Source: Chiloscyllium plagiosum (lineage: Eukaryota). From it: a stretch of DNA of 64,000 nucleotides. The stretch spans positions 73,890,696-73,954,695 of the forward strand of contig NC_057712.1 of NCBI RefSeq assembly GCF_004010195.1. Direction: 5' to 3'. Shown here piece after piece: positions 20,481 to 61,222 of this stretch. Both the position numbers and the translations under genes were made by a program. Position 1 is the stretch's first letter. Each line of letters starts with the position of its first letter. Under the pieces are notes generated by a model. That model worked only from the letters and a program-made list of their open reading frames with translations. It made no database searches and had not been told where the DNA came from.

Positions 20481-21354
20481 ATAATAAACTTCTGTTTTAT
20501 TGTTAAAATCAAATCTAAAGCATTGTGAGCTTGTGCTCCTATGAAAGACTATCTAATTAAAATCAAACAAAATGAACAAAATATGATCTAAAAAAGCCAG
20601 ATTTCAGTCTGGGATCTGACTTACCCAGAAATAACATCAGCCGGGATAATAACAATTGTTTACCTTCCATCTAACTTCTCCCAGCAGTGATTACACTTTC
20701 AAAGTACAACACTTGAGAGGTTCCAGTGATCATTAAAAGCATAACAAAGATGTAGGCCTTTTGTTTTCATTTTTCTCCACCGCAGGCTGCTGCTCCATTT
20801 AAACTGAAAGGCCACTGTGTCTTGAATTTACCTGCCATCCTTAATTGGACAGGCAATCTGTGTCAATACCAGTTAAGGGAGCACCTCCCTAAACATCTCA
20901 AGATTGACTGCTGACTCCTGCTGAGGGGTCAACTATTCCAATATGCTCTTTCCTAACTGTCTTCCACAAAACTGAGATCATCCATAACTCTGTTGTTCGT
21001 ATCTGATTCACAAAGTCCATGCCTTGATGCTGGTTCCCTCTAACTACCTCTGAAATAGAGAGCCTCTCGGAGGCAGCTGACAGACCTTACACTGCTGGCA
21101 GCATTCAAGAATCACTGAAAACCCATGAGAGTTCATGCAAATCCCTGAATCAACACTCAATCCCATTGGACTCAGGGATAATGAGCTTTCAAAAACGTGC
21201 CCATTAGCCAAGGTGGGGGTGGTATCGCACATTAGGCTATTCACACCACTAAGTAATAAGGCCGTCTTTCCCCCAGAGTGAATGAAATGTGCAAATCTTC
21301 TCAGTGAGTACATGGAACTGCCACTTAACCCACTCCAGCAGGGTACAATAAATC

Positions 21355-21485
21355 ATTCCTGACAAAGGTCTTTTGCCCGAAACATCGATTCTCCTGCTCC
21401 TTGGATGCTGCCTGACCTGCTGTGCTTTTCCAGCACCACACTCTTCAACTCTGATCACCAGCATCTGCTGTCCTCACTTCCACCC
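21355..21485 (+). mobile_element. Short Penelope-derived insertion (family B) starting at a degenerate hammerhead
   Basis: ATTC CTGACAA A GGTC TTTT GCCC GAAA CATC GATT. TSD CAATAAATC at 21346-21354 and 21488-21496. Confidence 0.75.
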
Positions 21486-21639
21486 TGCAATAAATCCATG
21501 CCAAAGTTCAGTGTATGGGGGGTTACCTTTACATTAGGTGTTATCTTGGTGAGAGAGGTGTTTCGGAGATCTTGTCCTAACAAGTCACAACCTCACCTAA
21601 AGTATAATCACTGAAGTGTGCATCTGTAAATGATAAACC

Positions 21640-25000: not shown

Positions 25001-25479
25001 TTTTTAAAGGCCTCCCGACCTGGCCAGACTTCATGAAAATCTAGCCCAGGAGTTAGCAGGTTGTCCACGGTCTTGTTCTAGGTGGACAAAAGTTACATCT
25101 CCAAAGTACCAGGATACTATCCTCGCCAACTTCAACTAAAAGAGCTGCAAAAAAAAACCTGGAAGTCAGCAAATGAGCAAGGGAATGTTAGATAAATTAA
25201 TACCTTCAGCTACTGAGGGCCTCCTTTCTGTCTCTCTTTTCTTCTGTATGATGCCATTTAGAGCTTGGGCCAAATTTTTGGTTACCTGCACTAATACCTC
25301 CTTATGCAGCACAGTGTAACAGCAATAAGTATGTATGGTGTTTCAGTGTTTTCCGTAAATATTTTAAAATAGGAGTGATTACTGCTTTTATTTCACTCAG
25401 GTGCCTATTAAATCTTTATAACAGCTTTCATAGACAGTTATTTATACAGATGTCATTTGCACACTCTCTCATCCCCTAT

Positions 25480-25960
25480 TTACAGCACAAAAACAGGCCA
25501 TTCAGCCCAATAGATCTATACTGGTGCTTATGATAACCATGAGGATGTTCTCACTCTTTATTTTGTTTGTCAGCATATTCTTCTACTCTGTTCTCTGTTG
25601 TGCTTATCTGGATTCATTGTTAATTCTTCTTGCCTCAACTACTTCTCATGGGCTTTATTCCTGATGAAGGGCTTTTGCCCGAAACGTCGATTTTGCCTGT
25701 CCTCGGATGCTGCCTGAATTGCTGTGCTCTTCCAGCACCACTGATCCAGATACTTCTCATGGCAGCATATTCCGCACTGTAAGCATTCACTGGATAAAGA
25801 CCATTCTCCTGAATACCTTGTTGTACTTATTTGGGTCGATCTTATAATTATTCCATTTAGTTCAAATCTTGACTGCAAACCAGAAATATTTCCCTTTTAA
25901 CACTTTAATACTTTTAAAGATCACTATCAGTGCTCTCTTTTCCAGAGAACAGAACCCAAA
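25480..25960 (-). mobile_element. Old CR1 3' end hosting the 25652-25750 insertion
   Basis: CAGCACAAAAACAGGCCATTCAGCCC is a reverse-complement CR1 3' UTR; the degraded body continues across the insertion. Confidence 0.55.
25657..25692 (+). ncRNA. Minimal type-I hammerhead ribozyme motif with intact core (family B)
   Basis: AUUC CUGAUGA A GGGC UUUU GCCC GAAA CGUC GAUU. All core nucleotides present, 4-bp stem II with tetraloop, GUC cleavage triplet, palindromic ACGU stem III. Inside a 99-bp insert flanked by the 12-bp TSD TACTTCTCATGG. Confidence 0.8.
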
Positions 25961-26771
25961 CCTGTTTGATGTAATTTCTTGAAATGGTTTTCTTTTATTC
26001 AAGAATGTAATGATTTACAGCATCAACTGCCGCCAAGGCTCCTGCAAATGAAAGCTGTGTTTAACAAGCTTTGTAAATGGTTCTGAACAGGCTGACAGAT
26101 TTTATTTAGAGTAAATCTGGAATGCAGTTTATGTACACTATCATTTAGGGGTGCCATCTGACCCAAACTAGTATTGTACTAGACTGGCTCATCTAAAACC
26201 TCTAAAATTGGCCTGGACTCTCCAAGAATTGAAGACTAATCTAGAGGGCACTGGCCACTGTTACTGGAAATCAAGCCCCGCTATTTGTTCCTGGCTTCAC
26301 CATGTCCTCACCTGTCCTAGTGCTCCTCCGTAGTGCTACCTCAGTTGATGCAGCATGTCTATTGGAGGTCTGCTGACTTTCAGTGGGGGAGTCTGTCTAT
26401 GACCTTACAAGAAGATCTCCGGCATCTTCAGCCTGGAATCCCCATCTTATATTGTCCAACCAAAGTGTGGCAGCAACAGGTCAGGGTTGAATGTTGTCAA
26501 GCGAGAGCAAAATCACAGATGGAATGTCAATGATGGCAGGATGAAATGCAATCAATCCAAGAAAAGCCAGAAGGTTTGTGCTCCAACGAGGAGCTAGTGT
26601 CTCTCCTACGGTTCTGTATTTAAACAGTCTTATCACAATAAGGATAGGCTGCTGAACTGTAGGCTGACTGCCAAGCTGCTCTGAACTCAAATAGCCAGAG
26701 CTATGATCACTCCTTTTTGAATGACAGTAAGCTGAGCTTCTACTGCAGCCCTGAATGTTCAAGGGGCTTTT

Positions 26772-30999: not shown

Positions 31000-32440
31000 T
31001 GCTTCAGTATTTACTGTGGAAAAGGATATGGAAGATATAGACTGTAGGGAAATAGATGGTGACATCTTGCAAAATGTCCAGATTACAGAGGAGGAAGTGC
31101 TGGATGTATTGAAACGGTTAAAGGTGGATAAATCCCCAGGACTTGATCAGGCGTACCCCAGAACTCTGTGGGAAGCTAGAGAAGTGATTGCTGGGCCTCT
31201 TGCTGAGATATTTGTATCATCAATAGTCACAGGTGAGGTGCCNNNNNNNNNNNNNNNNNNNNNNNNNNNNNNNNNNNNNNNNNNNNNNNNNNNNNNNNNN
31301 NNNNNNNNNNNNNNNNNNNNNNNNNNNNNNNNNNNNNNNNNNNNNNNNNNNNNNNNNNNNNNNNNNNNNNNNNNNNNNNNNNNNNNNNNNNNNNNNNNNN
31401 NNNNNNNNNNNNNNNNNNNNNNNNNNNNNNNNNNNNNNNNNNNNNNNNNNNNNNNNNNNNNNNNNNNNNNNNNNNNNNNNNNNNNNNNNNNNNNNNNNNN
31501 NNNNNNNNNNNNNNNNNNNNNNNNNNNNNNNNNNNNNNNNNNNNNNNNNNNNNNNNNNNNNNNNNNNNNNNNNNNNNNNNNNNNNNNNNNNNNNNNNNNN
31601 NNNNNNNNNNNNNNNNNNNNNNNNNNNNNNNNNNNNNNNNNNNNNNNNNNNNNNNNNNNNNNNNNNNNNNNNNNNNNNNNNNNNNNNNNNNNNNNNNNNN
31701 NNNNNNNNNNNNNNNNNNNNNNNNNNNNNNNNNNNNNNNNNNNNNNNNNNNNNNNNNNNNNNNNNNNNNNNNNNNNNNNNNNNNNNNNNNNNNNNNNNNN
31801 NNNNNNNNNNNNNNNNNNNNNNNNNNNNNNNNNNNNNNNNNNNNNNNNNNNNNNNNNNNNNNNNNNNNNNNNNNNNNNNNNNNNNNNNNNNNNNNNNNNN
31901 NNNNNNNNNNNNNNNNNNNNNNNNNNNNNNNNNNNNNNNNNNNNNNNNNNNNNNNNNNNNNNNNNNNNNNNNNNNNNNNNNNNNNNNNNNNNNNNNNNNN
32001 NNNNNNNNNNNNNNNNNNNNNNNNNNNNNNNNNNNNNNNNNNNNNNNAGGCTGAGGGGTGACCTTATAGAGGTTTACAAAATTATGAGGGGCATGGATAG
32101 GATAAATAGACGAAGTCTTTTCCCTGGGGTCAGGGAGTCCAGAACTAGAGGGCATAGGTTTAGGGTGAGAGGGGAAAGATATAAAAGAGACCTAAGAGGC
32201 AACTTTTTCACGCAAAGCGTGGTACTTGTATGGAATGAGCTGCCAGAGGCTGTGGTGGAGGCTGGCACAATTGCAACATTTAAGAAGCATTTGGATGGGT
32301 GTATGAATAGGAAGGGTTTGGAGGGATATGGGCCGGATGCTGGCAGGTGGGACTAGATTGGGTTGGGATATCTGGTCAGCATGGACGGGTTGGACCGAAG
32401 GGTCTGTTTCCATGCTGTACATCTCTATGAGTATGACTCT
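31000..32440 (+). mobile_element. HER1/CR1 LINE spanning an assembly gap
   Basis: LKVDKSPG..YPRTLWEARE before the gap and RLRGDLIEVYKIMRG..RGNFFTQ..WNELP after it. CTCTATGA-type tail. Confidence 0.92.
31243..32047. other. Assembly gap (805 N)
   Basis: Run of N bases. Confidence 1.
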
Positions 32441-33607: not shown

Positions 33608-33912
33608 GTGTCGAGAGTGTGGTGCTGGAAAAGCACAGCAGGTCAGGCAGCATCCGAGGAGCAGAGGAATCGATATTTTGAGCAAGAGCCCTTCATCAGG
33701 AATGAGGTTTGTGAGCTGAGAGGGTGGAGAGATAAATGGGAGGGGGGTGGGCCAGCTGAAGGTGACAGGTTGGAGAGGAGGGTGGAGCGGATAGGTGGGA
33801 AGGAAGATGGACAGGTAGGGCAGGTCATGAGGGCGGAGCCGAGTTGGAAGGTTGGAACTGGAGAAGGTTGGGGGAGAGGAAATGAGGAAACTAGTGAAGT
33901 CCACATTGATCC
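33608..33912 (-). mobile_element. Penelope-like element 3' fragment (family B) with degenerate hammerhead at about 33667-33703
   Basis: Minus strand ATTC CTGATGA A GGGC TCTT GCTC AAAA TATC GATT, preceded by a C-rich UTR and the endonuclease-end signature NVDFTSF. Confidence 0.8.
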
Positions 33913-33989: not shown

Positions 33990-35033
33990 AAAAAAACTGT
34001 AGATGCTGGAATCCAAAGTAGGTAAGCAGAAGGCTGGAAGAATCCAGCAAACAAGGAAGCATCAGGAGGTTGGAGAAGTTGACAGTTTGGGTATAACCCC
34101 TCTTCAGGAATGGAGGTGGGAGTAGGGGGAGCTGCAGATAAAGAGGGTGTGGGGAGGGAGGGTTTTGGGTGGGGAGACGGGTGGAGTGGTGAGTTACTGA
34201 TAGGTGAATACAGATGGTGAATACAACCTGGTTGGTTGATGGGAGAAATGAATCCAGTAGGTAGCTGGAAGGATTGGTCGGAGGGATGGATGGGAGGAGG
34301 CGGGGCTGGAAAGGGAGTTGGGGGATGGGAAGGGAGGTTATTTGAAATTGGAGAACTCAATGTTGAGTCCTCCTGGCTGTAGGCTGCCCAGGCGGAAGAT
34401 GAGGTGTTGTTCCTCCAATTTGCGGTCTGATTCACTGTGGCAATGGAGGAGTCCAAGGATGGACATGTCAGAAAGAGGATGGGAAGGGGAATTGAAATGG
34501 GCAGTGACTGGGAGGTTAGGCTGGCCGTTATAGGCCCGGCTGAGATGCTCAGCGAAATTTGCCCTGAGTTTACGTTTGGTCTTACCTATGTAGAGAAGAC
34601 CACATCGGGAGCACTGCATGCAGTAAATAGGTTGGAGGAGAGACAGGTGAATTTCTGTCGTGAGAGTTGGGGGGTTGGGGGGGATTCGTGGGAAGTTTGG
34701 TGCAGACCAAGGAGTGACAAAGGGCACGGTCCCTGCAAAAGGCAGACAAGTGTGGGGAGAGGAAGATGTTCTTGGTGGTGGGGTCTAATTGGAGTTGGCA
34801 GAAGTGTTTGAGGATGATACTTCAGATGTGGAGAGTTGTGGGGTCAAAAGTGAGGACAAGGGGAACCCTGACTTTATTATGTTTGAGTGGGTGAGGGTGG
34901 TCTCGAGCAGTGGGCTAGGGAATGAAGGAAGTGAGGTGGACTGCTGTCTGGATGACAGAGGTGGAGAAAAGCAAGTTGTTTAAAACGGGTAGACATCAGG
35001 GATTCTTAGGAGTGGAACGTCTCCTCGTCCAAG
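33990..35033 (-). mobile_element. Penelope-like element 3' portion with GIY-YIG endonuclease
   Basis: ORF 34338-34727 reads IYCMQCSRCGLLYIGKTKRKLRANFAEHL..VTAHF..RKLEEQHLIFRLGSLQPGGLN. Hammerhead remnant CTGAAGA at about 34078-34112. Confidence 0.9.
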
Positions 35034-35828
35034 CAGAAGCTGAGCACCTCAGATACCTCCTCCTATCTTCCCCCTGGACCATGACCCCACCATTGAACAT
35101 CAGGCTATTGTGTCCACAATGGTCACCAACCTCATTTCATCTGATTCCAGCCCCCCGCAACTGCCTCCAAGCTCAGAGTCTCCTAACCCTGTTCAACTCA
35201 CTTCTACATCCTTCCCAAAATCCACAAACAGGAATTCCCGAGCAGACCCATTGTTTTAGTTCCACAGAACTCATCTCTTCCTACCTCGACTCGATTTTTT
35301 TCTCCCTTGTCTAGTCTCTTCCCACTTATATCTACACTTCCTCTGACGCTTTACATCAGTTTCAAAATTTCCAATTACTGGGCTCCAGCCACCTCCTCTT
35401 TACTATGGAGGTGCAATGCCTTTACACCTCCACTCCCCCATCAGGATGGTCACAGAGCTCTCCACTTCTTCCTGGAACAAAGGCCAGAAACGTCCCCAAC
35501 CACCACCACCCTCCTACACCTGACCGAGTTCATTCCCCACCCTGAACAACTTTTAACCCCTCTCACTTTCTTCAGGTCAAAGGTGTTGGCATGGATAACC
35601 CTTTAGACCTTAGTTTAGCATCATTTCCAAAGGTGCATGCTGCTCCTGGAATATTCTTACATTATTATTCCAATTATATCAGTACAATGAACACCATCGA
35701 GGAGAATGTTTGTAAAGGGAAACTATTGTTTCTGTATTTTATGCTTTCAGATGTTGAACTGAAGCATTCTGGGAGCAGGCATAATGGATTGAATTTCCTC
35801 TCCAACAACAAAATAAACCAAATATTTT

Positions 35829-37399: not shown

Positions 37400-39240
37400 C
37401 CAAATGATGACAATGTTCATCAACTGGTGTGTTTGATAGGTTGGGTTCCTGTGGATACACACTAAAACTCCTGAGTGAGATTTTTAGGGTCACTTTATAA
37501 TGTCTCCTCTGACTGACATTAGCATACCCTACACTTAAGTACTCATTCGAAAATTCACTTTGGTAAGTTAATGTCAGGCATTCTGGCGAAATGATCACTC
37601 CAACTCAATTGCAACTGTCTTAATATGGTGTGGATATGTGACATACCAACTCAGATGAGCACTTCAGTATCCGGTATTCTGTCCTGCAATTTGATCTGCT
37701 GAAGGCTCTGAAGGCAGCTCAAGTGAAAGTGGTCGAGGTTCTCGATAGGGACAGTAAAAGAGAGTGTACTGCCAAAATAAGTGGACTTATCTGTTGTGAA
37801 CAGGATCTGGTCAAGGAGCGAAGGTTTGGGCTTGAACTAAGGATTTCTTGGAGTACGTATGTGCATCACTTCAGTTTTCCTCAAGTTTACAAGTAGAAGT
37901 TGCCACATGCATAGGAGAACAAACCCCTGTTACATTGTATGACCAGCTCTGATCCAGCAGCTAGTGCACAATCTTTGACAAAGAAGAAATCACAAAGTGT
38001 GTCTTTGGAGACCCTAATCTTAGGCTAGAGTCATCTCAGACTGAGCACCTTCTCATCCACGCGATATCAGATTTCAATTCCTGAATCACCCTCATAGAAG
38101 ACATTGGAAAATATGAAAGACATGCTGAAGAGGGTTGATGCCAGCATGTAACCCTGTTTAATTCCATCATTGGAATAATTCTTTGAATGGGTCAGTGGAC
38201 TCACTGACCTTCAGGATACATATGAGCATTCCATCATGAACCTGTTGAACTTCTCAAGAGTAGCTGAACTTTTCCATTGACTTCCAAAAGCCGCCAGGGC
38301 TGGTTATGTCAAAATCTTGGTCATGTCAACAGAAATAGTAAAGGAGTGTGTTCATTTTTGGCACTTTTCTTACAGCTGTCTACCTGACTATCGCAGTGGT
38401 TCACTGACCTTTTCTGAAACTATACTGATTCTCTGACAGAAAACCCTGAGACATGATGTTGCGCATGGCAAATCAGAAGGATTCTGGTAAAGATTTTGCC
38501 AACAATGAAGAGGAGTGAGATTCCATGATGATTTTCACAAGATTGGTGAGTCTCTTTCCACTTGTAGGGGCAGATAATGTAGGCAGGAGAAAGTGAGGAC
38601 TGCAGATGGTGGAGAATCAGAGTTGAAAGGGGATCTGAGGAGCAGGAGAGTTGACATTTTGGGCATAAACCCTTCATCAGGAATTCAACTCTTCTGCACC
38701 TTGGATGCTGTCTGATCTGCTGTGCTTTTCCAGTGCCACCCTTTTCGACTCAAGATAATGTAGACATCCTGATATATTTATGGTATCCTTCCCTATTCCT
38801 ACATAAGCTTCAAGTCACATCACCAACTGAACATATCACCCTCCACTTAATATGAATGCATTTTCATCCTTCTTTTTCTACTTAATCACTTCTCTCCCTC
38901 ACTTCACTGAAGTGGGGTGTACTTTCTAATTGTCATAAATACATACTTTGCTAATTTCATCATCGCATAAAATACTTCATCAGGGGATATGCAGCTGGTT
39001 ACCATTTATAGAAAACTTCTACTAATCAAACACTATTTTTCGCTGAGACCCAGTATGGACTTAATGGTTTCAATGCAGTATTCATTCTTCAAACTATTGC
39101 ATGTTCTGTCCAAAGTTCATTCACTGACCCTGAGGTTTGAATGATTAATTCATTGCATTCTTATGACTGATGACAGAGGTCATCTCAGTGGCAATCTCAG
39201 CTACTGGAAGAATATGTTAACTGCACTTGATTCATAAAAT
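37400..39240 (-). mobile_element. RTE-clade (BovB-like) LINE, degraded
   Basis: CENHHGISLLFIVGKIFTRILL (compare NYRGISLLSIAGKILARIL), plus ESV.GFR and FVDMTK.FD remnants. Confidence 0.75.
38583..38752. mobile_element. 170-bp inverted Penelope-derived insertion centred on a hammerhead (family B)
   Basis: 11-bp TSD AGATAATGTAG at 38572-38582 and 38753-38763. Minus arm 38583-38684 carries CTGATGA..GCCC AAAA TGTC; plus arm 38685-38752. Confidence 0.85.
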
Positions 39241-47718: not shown

Positions 47719-50346
47719 ACAGGGGAACCAAGGGTTACAGGGGAAGGACAGAAAAGCAATGTAAGGAACATTGAATGGCAGAGCAGGCTTGATGGGCTGA
47801 ATGGCCTGTTTCTGTACCCTCTTCTTATGGTTTTATGATCTAACTTGACATAACTAAAGGGAGTGTTATTTCACAAAACATTGCTTTTAGAGAAAAGGAA
47901 TAAAATAATAAATGAGTCATTTTTAACAAAATTATTTCATATATATATTAAACTGTGTTGCTGAAAATTGAAGATTGAAAGACTGTAAGTTTGCAAAATT
48001 GTCGCTGCAAAGTTTAGTTACAATCTGCTTTGGAGCCATCTTGGAAATGTTTACATTTGGATTGGCTTTATCACTCCAAACTGGAGTTGCAGTCAGACTT
48101 AGTTAGCCTTGACAACATTAAACATCAATGATTTCAGTATGAGTTCAGACCAAAACGAAAATACATTTAGAGACAAGATATTATTGAGTAGACTTGTAGC
48201 AATTGGTGCAAAATGCATCCAAGATGTGAAATTATGTCAAAACAATGTTTTAAAATTACTGAAATAGTAACATATGCTGCGAAAAAACAAAACCAACAGA
48301 GAGTTTTGAACTCAAATGGCTGCGGCATGCATTTTTTCGGATGCAATCTTTGTAATCTCTGTATTTGCTAAATTTTTAAAATTATAAGTACAAATGTTTA
48401 TATCTTAATACGTACTGTGCCATTTTAAGGTCATGAAGTTGTCTGTTAAAAAAAACCTTGAACTTTAGATAAATCAGTGTGTCAAGGCCTTAAATTCTAA
48501 TCGTTGCTCAGAAATTACACAGGGACTGGACAATAGGTCAGAATCCAATACTGCAAATCTCCAAATGAGTCAGGATCTTTGCCATACAAAAAAGCAGGTT
48601 AAATTAAGTGGGGAGTTATTTTTGAATTTAACAATGAATAGCCAGTTTGCCTGGTTCTGGAAACTTAGATGTTACAACAAAGCATGGCTGGATATGCAAA
48701 GTATGTTCATCCCCTGGATCAATGGCATGAGTGCAGGCGATCCCCACCATTGGGAAGCCTTGTCCATTAACCTGCACCCTCTTACTGCCTCTAACCATCC
48801 CGACGGTGTTCCTGCATGCAACCCAAGAGAAAAACAAAATTGCAGGAGTGGTCAAAAATTAACCCTTTTTCTCATTTTCTGATTTATATAAAATATATGA
48901 GCGAGGCCATCAAAAATCATCCATCTGGTAATAAAGGGTGGTGGGACTTTAGAAACGGTGGACAGAACCAAGATCAGGAAGCCATGCCCCCATTTCCGGT
49001 AGATGCCATTTTCAACAATAGAGGAAAGAGGGCAAAACACAAAGTAAAAAAGAATGAATTTCACATTGAAAGGGCTACTTAAACACAGGGCATAGGCCAA
49101 GCAGACCTGATGTTTCCTCCAGAAGTAGCCTCAACCAGCAATTTCTTTCCTATACCTTTATGGTGGAGATGATTTCCACTTGGTTCCTGAGGTCCGGTGT
49201 TGGGAGATATATCGGATGAATTGGCACTGACGGTGTAGGAGCAAAAAGTGGTGGGAGCAAATGGTGGTGGGTGGCAGAGTGTGGTTTGGCATGGCAGACA
49301 GGAGGAGTTACTTAGGGTAGGTGAAGCAGCATTGCTGGACATGAAGGGTATAAGAGGGTCATGGGAGATAGGTGGATGGCATAGGATGGCAAAGATGGTA
49401 TAAAGGATGTCATTTTGGGGAGGGAGGAGGGATTTGGATTGGCATGAGTTAGCATAGGGGACACAGGGAGTAGGTGGCTGAGATGTTAGTGACGATGGAT
49501 ACAGAGCCTAATATTTAACAGAACAATTGGGACCAAAGTCTCAGAGATGTGAGGTGGGTCCTTTAGCCAGCTCACTGAGCAGCCCCTGCAACTGCCTCTG
49601 ATTTACGACTGGGGTAGGGGTGAGACGCTACATGGCAACAAGTTTCCCTCCTCCACCAGAAGAACAATTGGGGGCAATCTATCCTGAAGTAAGTGTGTCA
49701 AGCCAGAAGATTTCCTAGCTTAAGCCACTTGCCTCAATAGTCTCCTCCACTGGTTAGCTTACATCTGAATGGAGCAGGTTTACACAAACATGCTCCTTAA
49801 CATTCTTCAGTAAAACCAACATTGGTCCTGTGACTCCACAATAACAGGAAAATGTGGGATATACCATGCCACAAGGTCACAGATTGTGTTGAATACAAGT
49901 GACCCACCATGTCTTGTGGATACCCAGTTTTGACTTGCTTTATCTGTTTTGAATCAATTCCTTTAACATGGTGGTATTGCTTCAAAACACAATGAAGAGT
50001 ATCTTTAGTGTGACGAGGGGACTATATCTTCACAAGGTCATTTCCAACCATACTGTCATAAAAGATACATCAACAACATGTAGTTTGGTGAGAACAATGT
50101 TATGTAGGTTTTATCCAAATAGAGGTTCCTTCAATGCCTGCCATCAATCCAGTTTGACATTTATGTCAGTCAGAACTTGGCCAGCTCCATCAGAAATGGT
50201 GCTGCTGAGTTACTATTCATAATGGCCATTAAAGCCTCCTACTTAGAGTACATTATGTGCCCTTGTTGCCTTCAATGATTCCTTCAAGTGATGCTCAGTA
50301 CTGACTCATCAGTTGAGGTGGAAATGGGTGGTAATTAATAGGTGTT

Positions 50347-51313
50347 CAAAGTCTGTGAGAAGATTTGTAGCTCGGTGCTCGTTGTTGTGGCTCTCTTCGC
50401 CGAGCTGGGAATTTGTGTTGCAGACATTTCGTCCCCTGTCTAGGTGACATCCTCAGTGCTTGGGAGCCTCCTATGAAGCGCTTCTGTTTGTTTCCTCCGG
50501 CATTTATAGTGGTTTGTCTCTGCCGCTTCCGGTTGTCAGTTCCAGCTGTCCGCTGCAGTGGCCGGTATATTGGGTCCAGGTCAATGTGTTTGCTGATAGA
50601 ATTTGTGGATGAGTGCCATGCCTCTAGGAATTCCCTGGCTGTTCTTAGTTTGGCTTGTCCTATAATAGTAGTATTGTCCCAGTCAAACTCATATTGCTTG
50701 TCATCTGCGTGTGTGGCTACTAAGGATAGCTGGTCGTGTCGTTTCATGGCTAGTTGGTGTTCATGGATACGGATCGTTAGCTGTCTTCCTGTTTGTCCCA
50801 TGTAGTGTTTTGTGCAGTCCTTGCATGGGATTTTGTACACTACGTTGGTTTTGCTCATGCTGGGTATCGTCTTTCCCTTAGGCATCTGTTGATGAAATTG
50901 CGGGGGTATCCGTTTTTGGCGAATACATTGTATAGGTGTTCTTCTTCCTCTTTTTGCAGTTCTGGTGTGCTGCAGTGTGTTGTGGCCCTTTTGAACAGTG
51001 TCTTGATGCAACTTCTTTTGTGTGTGTTGGGGTGGTTGCTTTCGTAGTTCAGGACTTGGTCTGTGTGTATGGCTTTCCTGTATACCTTTGTATACACAGA
51101 TTCTATCAACAAACACATCGACCTGGACCCAATATACCAGCCACTGCAACGGACAGCTGGAACTGACAACTGAAAGTGGCAGACACAAAGCACTATAAAT
51201 GCCGGAGGAAAAATCACAGAAGCGCTTCACAGGAGGCTCCCAAGCACTGAGGATGTCACTTAGACACATCTGCAACACAAATTCCCAGCTCGGCGAAGAG
51301 AACCACAACAATC
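50347..51313 (-). mobile_element. Penelope-like element (family C, Poseidon-like): RT C-terminus plus GIY-YIG, with an inverted terminal copy
   Basis: VYRKAIHTDQVLNYESNHPNTHKRSCIKTLFKRA..NGYP and NVVYKIPCKDCTKHYMGQTGRQL..RIHEH..REFLEAWH. About 50380-50605 is inverted at about 51097-51311. 10-bp TSD AATAGGTGTT at 50337-50346 and 51314-51323. Confidence 0.93.
50420..50459 (-). ncRNA. Minimal type-I hammerhead ribozyme motif (family C)
   Basis: GCA CUGAGGA U GUCACCU AGAC AGGGGAC GAAA UGUC UGC. CUGANGA and GAAA intact, stem I GCA/UGC, GUC triplet. Confidence 0.72.
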
Positions 51314-51693: not shown

Positions 51694-51828
51694 CTTCTAA
51701 TGAAGAGTCACCGGACTCAAAATGTTAAATCTGCCTTATTTCCAATAATGCTGCCAGACCTGCTGAGTTTTGCCAGCAATTTCTATTTTTGTTTCAGATC
51801 ACCAGCATCTACAGATCTTTGTTTTAAC
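51694..51828 (+). mobile_element. Short Penelope-derived repeat (family D) with degenerate hammerhead
   Basis: TT CTAATGA A GAGTC ACCG GACTC AAAA TGTT AA, followed by an ATGCTGCCAGACCTGCTGAG..CCAGCA tail related to family B. Confidence 0.7.
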
Positions 51829-54911: not shown

Positions 54912-55035
54912 ATAACAAAGACAGAAAGTGGTGGAAAAACTCAGCAGGTCTGACAGCATCTATGTAGAGAGAAACAGAGTTAATGTTTCAAAACTGAAAT
55001 AAAAACAGTTCAGAAGAAGTCATACTCCACAGAAT
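54912..55035. mobile_element. Family D repeat, partly palindromic remnant
   Basis: AACTCAGCAGGTCTGACAGCATC..AGAGTTAATGTTTC is the reverse complement of the 51720-51790 type; followed by a plus-strand TTCAGAAGAAGTCA remnant. Confidence 0.65.
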
Positions 55036-60511: not shown

Positions 60512-61222
60512 AATTAGAAAGCAAAGAGATTGGTTATTGGGATTGAATAATTGTTGGACATTAGTCACTTCATTTGATCATTGTACACAGTTAGGCAGTC
60601 ATGTTTTAAGGTGTAAAATTAACACGTACTTCAGGAGAGTATGCTAGAAGACTGTTTACCCCTCCCCACGTTTCTTCACCTATTCACTTTAAGGAGTTCT
60701 TCCATACTTTAAGAGGGAAATGCAAATGTAGGGATTAGCTGACAGTGGGGAACATGATGTGAACATATGTACTAGATGAGCTGTGATTAGGAAGAAAGCA
60801 AATAGAATGGATGGGGGCATTGAAGGTTCAAGAGAGATAAATGTCAGTTTGCTGCATCTTCTTTCAAGTATCCTGTCCTCACTAGATTATTTGATCCAAT
60901 TCTAAATAAATACAAATGTTCTAAAATTCCAAACCAGGTGGACTCCAGAACAGCTCTGTCCACCCTTTTATAAACTTCCTCCTCCCCATCTCCCAGATTA
61001 TAAGAATTTCTCTCAGGGGTCACAAATTAGAAAGCAAAGAGATTGCTTATTGGGATTGAATAATTGTTGGACATTAGTCACTTCATTTGATCATTGTACA
61101 CAGTTAGGCAATGTTCTAAAATTCCAAACCAGGTGGACTCCAGAACAGCTCTGTCCACCCTTTTATAAACTTCCTCCTCCCCATCTCCCAGATTATAAGA
61201 ATTTCTCTCAGGGGTCACAAAT
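60512..61222 (+). repeat. Complex local duplication A-X-B-A'-B'
   Basis: A 60512-60597 matches A' 61025-61110 (86 bp, 1 mismatch). B 60915-61027 matches B' 61110-61222 (113 bp, identical by eye). Confidence 0.95.

Follow-up and report, generated by a model that had tools for sequence, protein, structure and literature searches.

A recently inserted 99-nt unit with a minimal hammerhead core in Chiloscyllium plagiosum, very probably a stub of a Penelope-like element

Background

In a 64,000-nt stretch of Chiloscyllium plagiosum DNA (contig NC_057712.1, forward strand; called the window hereafter), a short segment with a hammerhead motif stands between the two copies of a 12-bp repeat. This raises the question of whether such a segment is a mobile unit of its own or a piece of a larger element, and of what fixed its two ends. 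An earlier note, made from the letters of this DNA, had offered two answers, an extreme 5'-truncated Penelope copy or a member of a non-autonomous retrozyme-like family. Here we consider both, using the other copies in the window and contigs from related organisms; published work on Penelope-like elements (PLEs) is cited from extracts of the papers named.

Insertion and age

The 12-mer TACTTCTCATGG occurs at 25640-25651 and 25751-25762 on the forward strand, nowhere else in the window, and encloses an insert of 99 nt (25652-25750). Exact 12-mer repeats at similar spacing are not in themselves rare, the first 31 kb of the window holding at least six others, but a shared 12-mer within ±10 nt was met in 3 of 20,000 random position pairs, so that a duplication abutting both repeat ends is rare by chance.

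For orthology, the contigs of four of the 24 runs listed (X1, X9 and X19, DNA; X21, RNA) were compared with positions 25250-26149. In organism B, contig 17 of run X9 joins 25491-25639 to 25751-26149, skipping 111 nt, with 12 letters that fit both sides; in organism C, contig 10 of run X19 has 25481-25641 and 25756-25958 contiguous, that is, with 111 nt plus 3 missing. The empty site that the earlier note had suggested looking for was thus found in both of the two related species compared, as a single 12-mer (organism B) or a 3-nt-shorter form (organism C). In organism A (run X1) both insertion junctions are spanned, and the 15 joints listed, of 29, include no empty one. Counting substitutions only, the flanks diverge by about 1.4% from organism B (11/805) and about 3.2% from organism C (26/811); two of these substitutions are common to the run of organism A too and so belong to the assembly of the window. 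The window also differs from the runs of all three organisms at 25561, 25971 and 26052, which are private alleles or assembly errors.

Since both relatives have the empty site, the insertion is younger than the splits from organisms B and C, and the four intact CpGs of the insert agree with a recent insertion. The 12-bp duplication around a 99-nt insert, and the youth of the latter, are therefore confirmed. Two other readings of the boundaries are ruled out: a 12-mer repeat older than the insert, by the empty sites of both organisms, and an outer boundary formed by the 10-mer that recurs at 25571 and 25763, by the exactly 111 nt that the empty site of organism B skips.

The insert and its hammerhead

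All parts of the insert lie on the forward strand. A 5' leader (25652-25660), in which 25653-25656 match longer subfamily relatives and an initiator-like motif, YYANWYY, has its A at 25657, is followed by a minimal type I hammerhead core (25661-25688; CUGAUGA, an extra A, helix II, a UUUU loop and GAAA-C-G-U-C) and by a downstream part of the pLTR module (25689-25750), which ends at the short, tail-less 3' end. This last part, previously described as a 60-nt tail, is present and measures 62 nt. As had been stated, nine nucleotides of the insert precede CUGAUGA, which starts at 25661. The core letters C3-A9, G12-A15.1, U16.1 and C17 (25688) are all present, with a predicted cut after 25688, and the motif has an extra A after A9 and the pair G10.1-C11.1; the reading that core bases and CpGs are kept is therefore correct. 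The best matches to the Pol III A and B boxes have two mismatches each, poly(A) is absent from the insert and its one frame is a mini-frame of 17 codons whose AUG lies in the hammerhead core, in line with the earlier statement that the insert has no Pol III box, ORF or poly(A).

In the folding model, helix II has 4 bp with pair probabilities of 0.98, helix I has 2 bp with a probability of 0.14 and is followed by a U-U mismatch, and helix III is a loopless ACGU palindrome that is possible only in trans. Folding of the ribozyme region does not surpass that of its shuffles (z -0.28). By nearest-neighbour energies, which contain no tertiary terms, an active-like dimer (helix II plus trans helix III) comes out at -18.9 kcal/mol, less favourable than two monomers (-22.8) and than a dimer in which the core is sequestered (-24.6). 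A search of the window with Rfam gave 0 matches at the gathering score, and a relaxed hammerhead scan gave 19 matches against 9-14 in 10 shuffles and was for this reason left out of the counts. The word "intact", applied to this hammerhead in the earlier note, is accordingly true of the core letters only: the core bases and helix II justify it, whereas the 2-bp helix I, the loopless helix III and the missing Rfam match do not. We describe the motif as the minimal, dimer-type form known from PLE pLTRs, and it is probably weak. Minimal hammerheads of PLE pLTRs are themselves predicted to need a dimer and are weak in vitro (PMC4209133), and the ribozyme of an anole PLE needs protein help (PMC11167929).

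Descent from a Penelope-like element

Within the window, blastn found three further family loci at E < 1e-6, plus weaker relatives. The first is a sister stub of 133 nt (21346-21496, forward strand), which has the same start A and a tail of about 38 nt and is flanked by a 9-bp duplication (21346-21354 and 21488-21496). The sister copy called 33703 (33610-33900, reverse strand) has the short 3' end and keeps, upstream of its ribozyme, some 190 nt that are rich in pyrimidines, the upstream limit being judged by eye; a duplication was searched for around 33610-33900 and none was found. A third copy (38572-38763) is arranged head to head within an 11-bp duplication: its inverted arm (38583-38684) has the same start A, a tail and an internal deletion, and its direct arm (38685-38752) is tail-less and starts 2 nt before the predicted cut site. 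Opposite-strand joints, of 25656-25660 with 25700, are seen in the contigs too.

The evidence for descent comes from what appears to be the decayed 3' end of a Neptune-type PLE (33990-34784, reverse strand), made up of a GIY-YIG remnant (34341-34784), a pyrimidine-rich UTR and a hammerhead module from 34111, about 225 nt behind the remnant. The insert aligns with this module at a local score of 85, compared with 38.5±4.4 for shuffles, none of 500 being as good, and the Penelope origin proposed earlier gains its support from this homology. The remnant has a weak Pfam match (E 0.038) and 131 relatives, several with PF01541, the named ones being skate, stingray and bamboo shark records. A CX2-5CxxC linker is found in three of the five relatives read, in a region that the remnant's own open frame does not show. 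Such a linker before GIY-YIG is a mark of Neptune and Nematis (PMC8557442); to judge from these sequences the parent element likely belongs to the Neptune clade, the linker of the relatives being a mark of Nematis as well.

In organism B, 134 contigs extend beyond 25653 in the upstream direction, their letters there being shared in part (agreement 0.47 versus a baseline of 0.33), and by eye these letters resemble those upstream of copy 33703. As relatives thus continue upstream with shared letters, the first bases of the insert were templated by a longer element, with the exception of the first G (25652), which differs from the majority letter of the longer relatives. The upstream region of copy 33703 compared with the UTR of the remnant scored no better than shuffles (284/500), and an autonomous parent of the exact subfamily was not seen.

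The 3' ends lie, counted from the shared A, at about +94 to +98 (three arms) or at +133/134 (two arms), about 38 nt apart. The short boundaries recur in X9 and X19, as pieces from 25653/56 to 25749/50, and the X9 row at 25749 has 57 contigs with an overhang agreement of 0.37. An optional tail of 30-40 nt has been described for PLEs (PMC3846280) and is delimited by two internal RT start sites (PMC11167929); by analogy, we read the two 3' ends as the PLE tail pattern. In the same system the length of the cDNA product follows the 5' end of the RNA, and ribozyme mutants still insert (PMC11167929).

The family is very abundant, with 32,183 contigs in X1, and comprises at least two sequence subfamilies that share the same 5' edge and each have longer relatives. 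Pfam searches of 72 of the 98 open frames of at least 78 aa in the window gave two RT fragments only and no host exon, the frame 35187-35603 gave no match to relative P0005, and exact-pattern scans gave 0 matches in viral contigs, metagenome contigs and prokaryote genomes. We hold it very probable that the insert is a PLE stub, that is, a truncated copy derived from a pLTR.

The window also holds a second PLE remnant (50346-51311), which we take to be Poseidon-type by its motifs. Its GIY-YIG-like frame is a different one, and it has a minimal hammerhead of its own at 50456 (reverse strand); a canonical TATAAA stands upstream of that core at a distance of about 55 nt, and there is an inverted arm, at 50491-50610 and 51092-51211. 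Decayed stubs of a further hammerhead-bearing family lie at 51697-51810 (forward) and 54928-54960 (reverse), two identical 113-nt copies stand 195 nt apart (60915-61027 and 61110-61222), and an assembly gap of about 805 N (31243-32047) falls inside a LINE-like frame.

The shared 5' edge

The A at 25657 is the commonest 5' edge of the family and this edge stands directly before ATT. Of the four other ribozyme-bearing copies of the window, two have precisely this A as their first base, namely copy 21355 (the sister stub) and the inverted arm of 38583-38752; the other two, copies 33703 and 34111, extend upstream. The insert has its own start 5 nt farther upstream than the modal edge. In both of the upstream-extending copies (33704-33720 and 34112-34135, reverse strand) a pyrimidine tract with CAG, a possible splice acceptor, precedes the shared A by 12 and 20 nt.

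The earlier note had recommended a BLASTN search with the insert alone, to see whether the copies peak at these ends. Such a search is confounded, as every query produces peaks where it starts and stops, and for this reason we used the agreement among overhanging letters instead. At 25657 and 25658 there are 835+270 (X1), 840+299 (X9) and 608+217 (X19) overhanging contigs, with a median overhang of 255 nt at the edge. Among the 24 of 668 loose-end rows listed, the agreement at these two positions is 0.31-0.33 in all three DNA runs, compared with 0.31-0.32 for unrelated flanks and with 0.67-0.75 where contigs go on inside the family (rows 25692/25694). By simulation, values of 0.31-0.33 allow at most about 10-30% of contigs, depending on divergence, to continue into shared upstream sequence; as young long copies collapse into shared contigs and are under-represented in such counts, the share of stubs is overestimated. 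In the RNA run (X21, poly(A) single-cell, 2% read) the agreement at 25657 is 0.47, which in the simulation corresponds to 40% or more of those reads continuing upstream. Family reads there are on both strands; the 2% read contain no pile-up of ends, in a library type not built for cut or capped 5' ends, and no reads on the unique flanks of the locus. The 5' ends of the family are clustered just upstream of the ribozyme and are not random, so that of the "extreme 5'-truncated Penelope copy" the descent stands and the random truncation does not.

A possible origin by run-off copying

We suggest that the stub arose by copying of pLTR RNA up to its very end. The parent PLE protein would bind the pLTR module and nick the target, with a stagger of 12 nt here; reverse transcription would start at the inner of the internal RT sites, about 95 nt into the RNA, and the cDNA would pass through the uncut ribozyme and run off the capped 5' end just upstream, the RNA start being placed in the initiator-like motif with a TATA-like box some 31-33 nt before it. 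Nicking, the internal RT start at two sites and the independence from cleavage are taken from another PLE (PMC11167929). The explanation as a whole, a recent pLTR stub of a likely Neptune element made by an internal RT start and run-off, has in our judgement slightly better than even chances; run-off at the 5' end of the RNA as the cause of the stub, where we infer the reason for which copying stops, is an evenly balanced proposition.

The sequences around the edge suggest a Pol II transcription start. The initiator consensus is YYANWYY, and it is matched at the modal A in both long window copies (33703 and 34111), in pyrimidine-rich DNA, which matches it easily. TTTATCT, which is not a canonical TATA box, stands at -33 in copy 33703 and at -31 in copy 34111; this pattern has a background of 3%, was written after seeing the sequences and is based on two homologous copies and one majority line. 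If this initiator and TATA-like geometry does mark a start, the stubs would be run-off products. Two other ways of ending a copy are disfavoured by the positions of the ends: a stall at the ribozyme structure would end copies 3' of it, and self-cleavage would end them at 25689, and the plain stubs do neither. The direct arm at 38685-38752, beginning 2 nt before the cut site, stands apart from the plain stubs. Against a TATA-like start at the shark edge speaks the Penelope promoter of D. virilis, which is TATA-less and internal (PMC2377424) and lies well upstream of the ribozyme, with a start about 120 nt before the 3' boundary of the intron, where the ribozyme lies (PMC2377424, PMC4209133).

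A bolder version, which we put forward tentatively and rate as somewhat doubtful, is that the stubs are the PLE counterpart of retroviral strong-stop DNA, cDNAs reaching from the internal RT start in the 5' pLTR as far as the RNA cap and integrated directly and in very large numbers. Shark genomes would then hold a fossil map of the transcription start and of the two RT starts, with the A of the initiator placed four bases ahead of the core, and the unmatched first G of the insert would be a copied cap. Reverse transcriptases can copy an RNA cap as an extra G; a single base counts as no evidence for it here. A literature search, with subscription papers and Repbase/Dfam outside its scope, gave no account of PLE stubs in sharks or of PLE products resembling strong-stop DNA.

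Other explanations of the edge

The PLE origin may hold and the edge may nevertheless have been set by the GIY-YIG enzyme trimming or resolving the cDNA at ATT, or by an intron-like acceptor or processing, which we consider rather unlikely. The modal edge directly precedes ATT, and 5'-ATT-3' is the preferred site of the anole enzyme, which also cleaves its own pLTR (PMC11167929); that enzyme, however, is of the Poseidon clade, and the present insert begins 5 nt upstream of ATT. As for processing, the Penelope intron of D. virilis ends at helix I (PMC4209133), and the pyrimidine tract with YAG in the two long copies would fit an acceptor, yet YAG stands 12 and 20 nt upstream and not at the edge itself.

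A self-propagating, SINE-like short family, with masters of about 95-135 nt transcribed by Pol II or by read-through and mobilised in trans by Neptune, would account for the same boundaries in three species and for the very large numbers (32,183 contigs in X1), and non-autonomous pLTR derivatives are described in other PLE clades (PMC8557442). Such a family is nonetheless improbable, given that at least two subfamilies share the edge and each has longer relatives, that the 3' ends follow the PLE tail pattern, that Pol III boxes are missing and that the unique flanks of the locus have no reads in the 2% read of the X21 RNA.

Still less probable is ordinary random 5' truncation, in which case the edge would be only apparent, produced by the ends of the query, by contig breaks or by a pyrimidine tract that decays faster. 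PLEs are heavily 5'-truncated (PMC4209133, PMC8557442), and both the collapse of contigs and the RNA agreement of 0.47 point this way; on the other side, the DNA overhangs, with a median of 255 nt, agree at the level of unrelated flanks in each of the three DNA runs, and two window copies have duplications or inversions exactly at the modal A.

A retrozyme cycling through self-cleaved circular RNA is very improbable: animal retrozymes, monomers included, derive from PLE pLTRs (bioRxiv 2026.07.22.740005) and in one X1 contig 10 letters connect 25750 with 25653, which may be a head-to-tail pair, the orientation not being given, whereas the insert is a single copy with no tandem array and with ends away from the cut site (25688/25689), its helix I is non-canonical, its active-like dimer is energetically worse than the alternatives, and what stands 5' of the ribozyme differs from copy to copy and does not repeat the 3' end.

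Meaning of the stub

If the stub arose by run-off copying, it would leave the TATA-like box behind, and stubs of this kind would mostly be dead-end by-products; the present one is likely such a by-product, left by its parent's copying, rather than an independent mobile element. The class has already been described in outline and is very abundant, so that the single object is ordinary, and its value is that of a clean, dated example, with an empty site in two relatives and both ends exact. If the clustered edge is an RNA start, the thousands of shark stubs would show computationally where PLE transcripts begin, and the same stubs would bear on why PLEs need a tandem pLTR and on whether the ribozyme helps to make inserts.

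Comparison with known systems

The minimal hammerheads of truncated PLEs (PMC4209133) have the same type I core without loop 3, the palindromic 15.2-16.2, the extra base between 9 and 10.1 and G10.1-C11.1, as in the insert; they are mostly single dispersed motifs from truncated PLEs and also occur in the pLTRs of fish Neptune elements. Helix II of the insert has 4 bp and its helix I 2 bp, as in D. virilis, compared with 4-5 bp in Schistosoma (PMC4209133). In the extract of that paper available to us, cartilaginous fish are not named and a clustering of 5' ends is not described.

Animal retrozymes (PMC7229834; bioRxiv 2026.07.22.740005) resemble the insert in being non-coding, with a type I hammerhead, PLE-pLTR ancestry and long duplications. 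The insert differs from them in having no tandem repeats and a minimal instead of a canonical ribozyme, and in falling below the 150-450-bp monomer (PMC7229834). No array of ribozyme units is present at the locus, the seven tandem rows of the window being unrelated, and in place of a 6-bp helix I with contacts between loops 1 and 2 there is a helix I of 2 bp, with no loop 3; because both the tandem array and the canonical ribozyme are missing, the retrozyme-like family offered earlier as the second option is set aside. For a tRNA-derived SINE, the insert has two mismatches in each Pol III box and no poly(A) 3' end.

With EN+ PLEs (PMC3846280, PMC8557442, PMC11167929) the insert and its family share duplications of 8-12 bp and the optional 30-40-nt tail, and the inverted pLTR arm, solo pLTRs and the internal RT start are also alike. 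The insert departs from the elements of these papers in its length of less than 100 nt and in a 5' edge concentrated before the ribozyme, the 5' truncation described in the extracts being without such an edge. It has the minimal hammerhead, the homology to a GIY-YIG-linked module and the insertion duplication of this class, and the optional tail and inverted arm are found among its copies (21355; 38583-38752). On this sequence evidence we classify the insert as a truncated EN+ PLE copy, and not as an animal retrozyme or a Pol III SINE.
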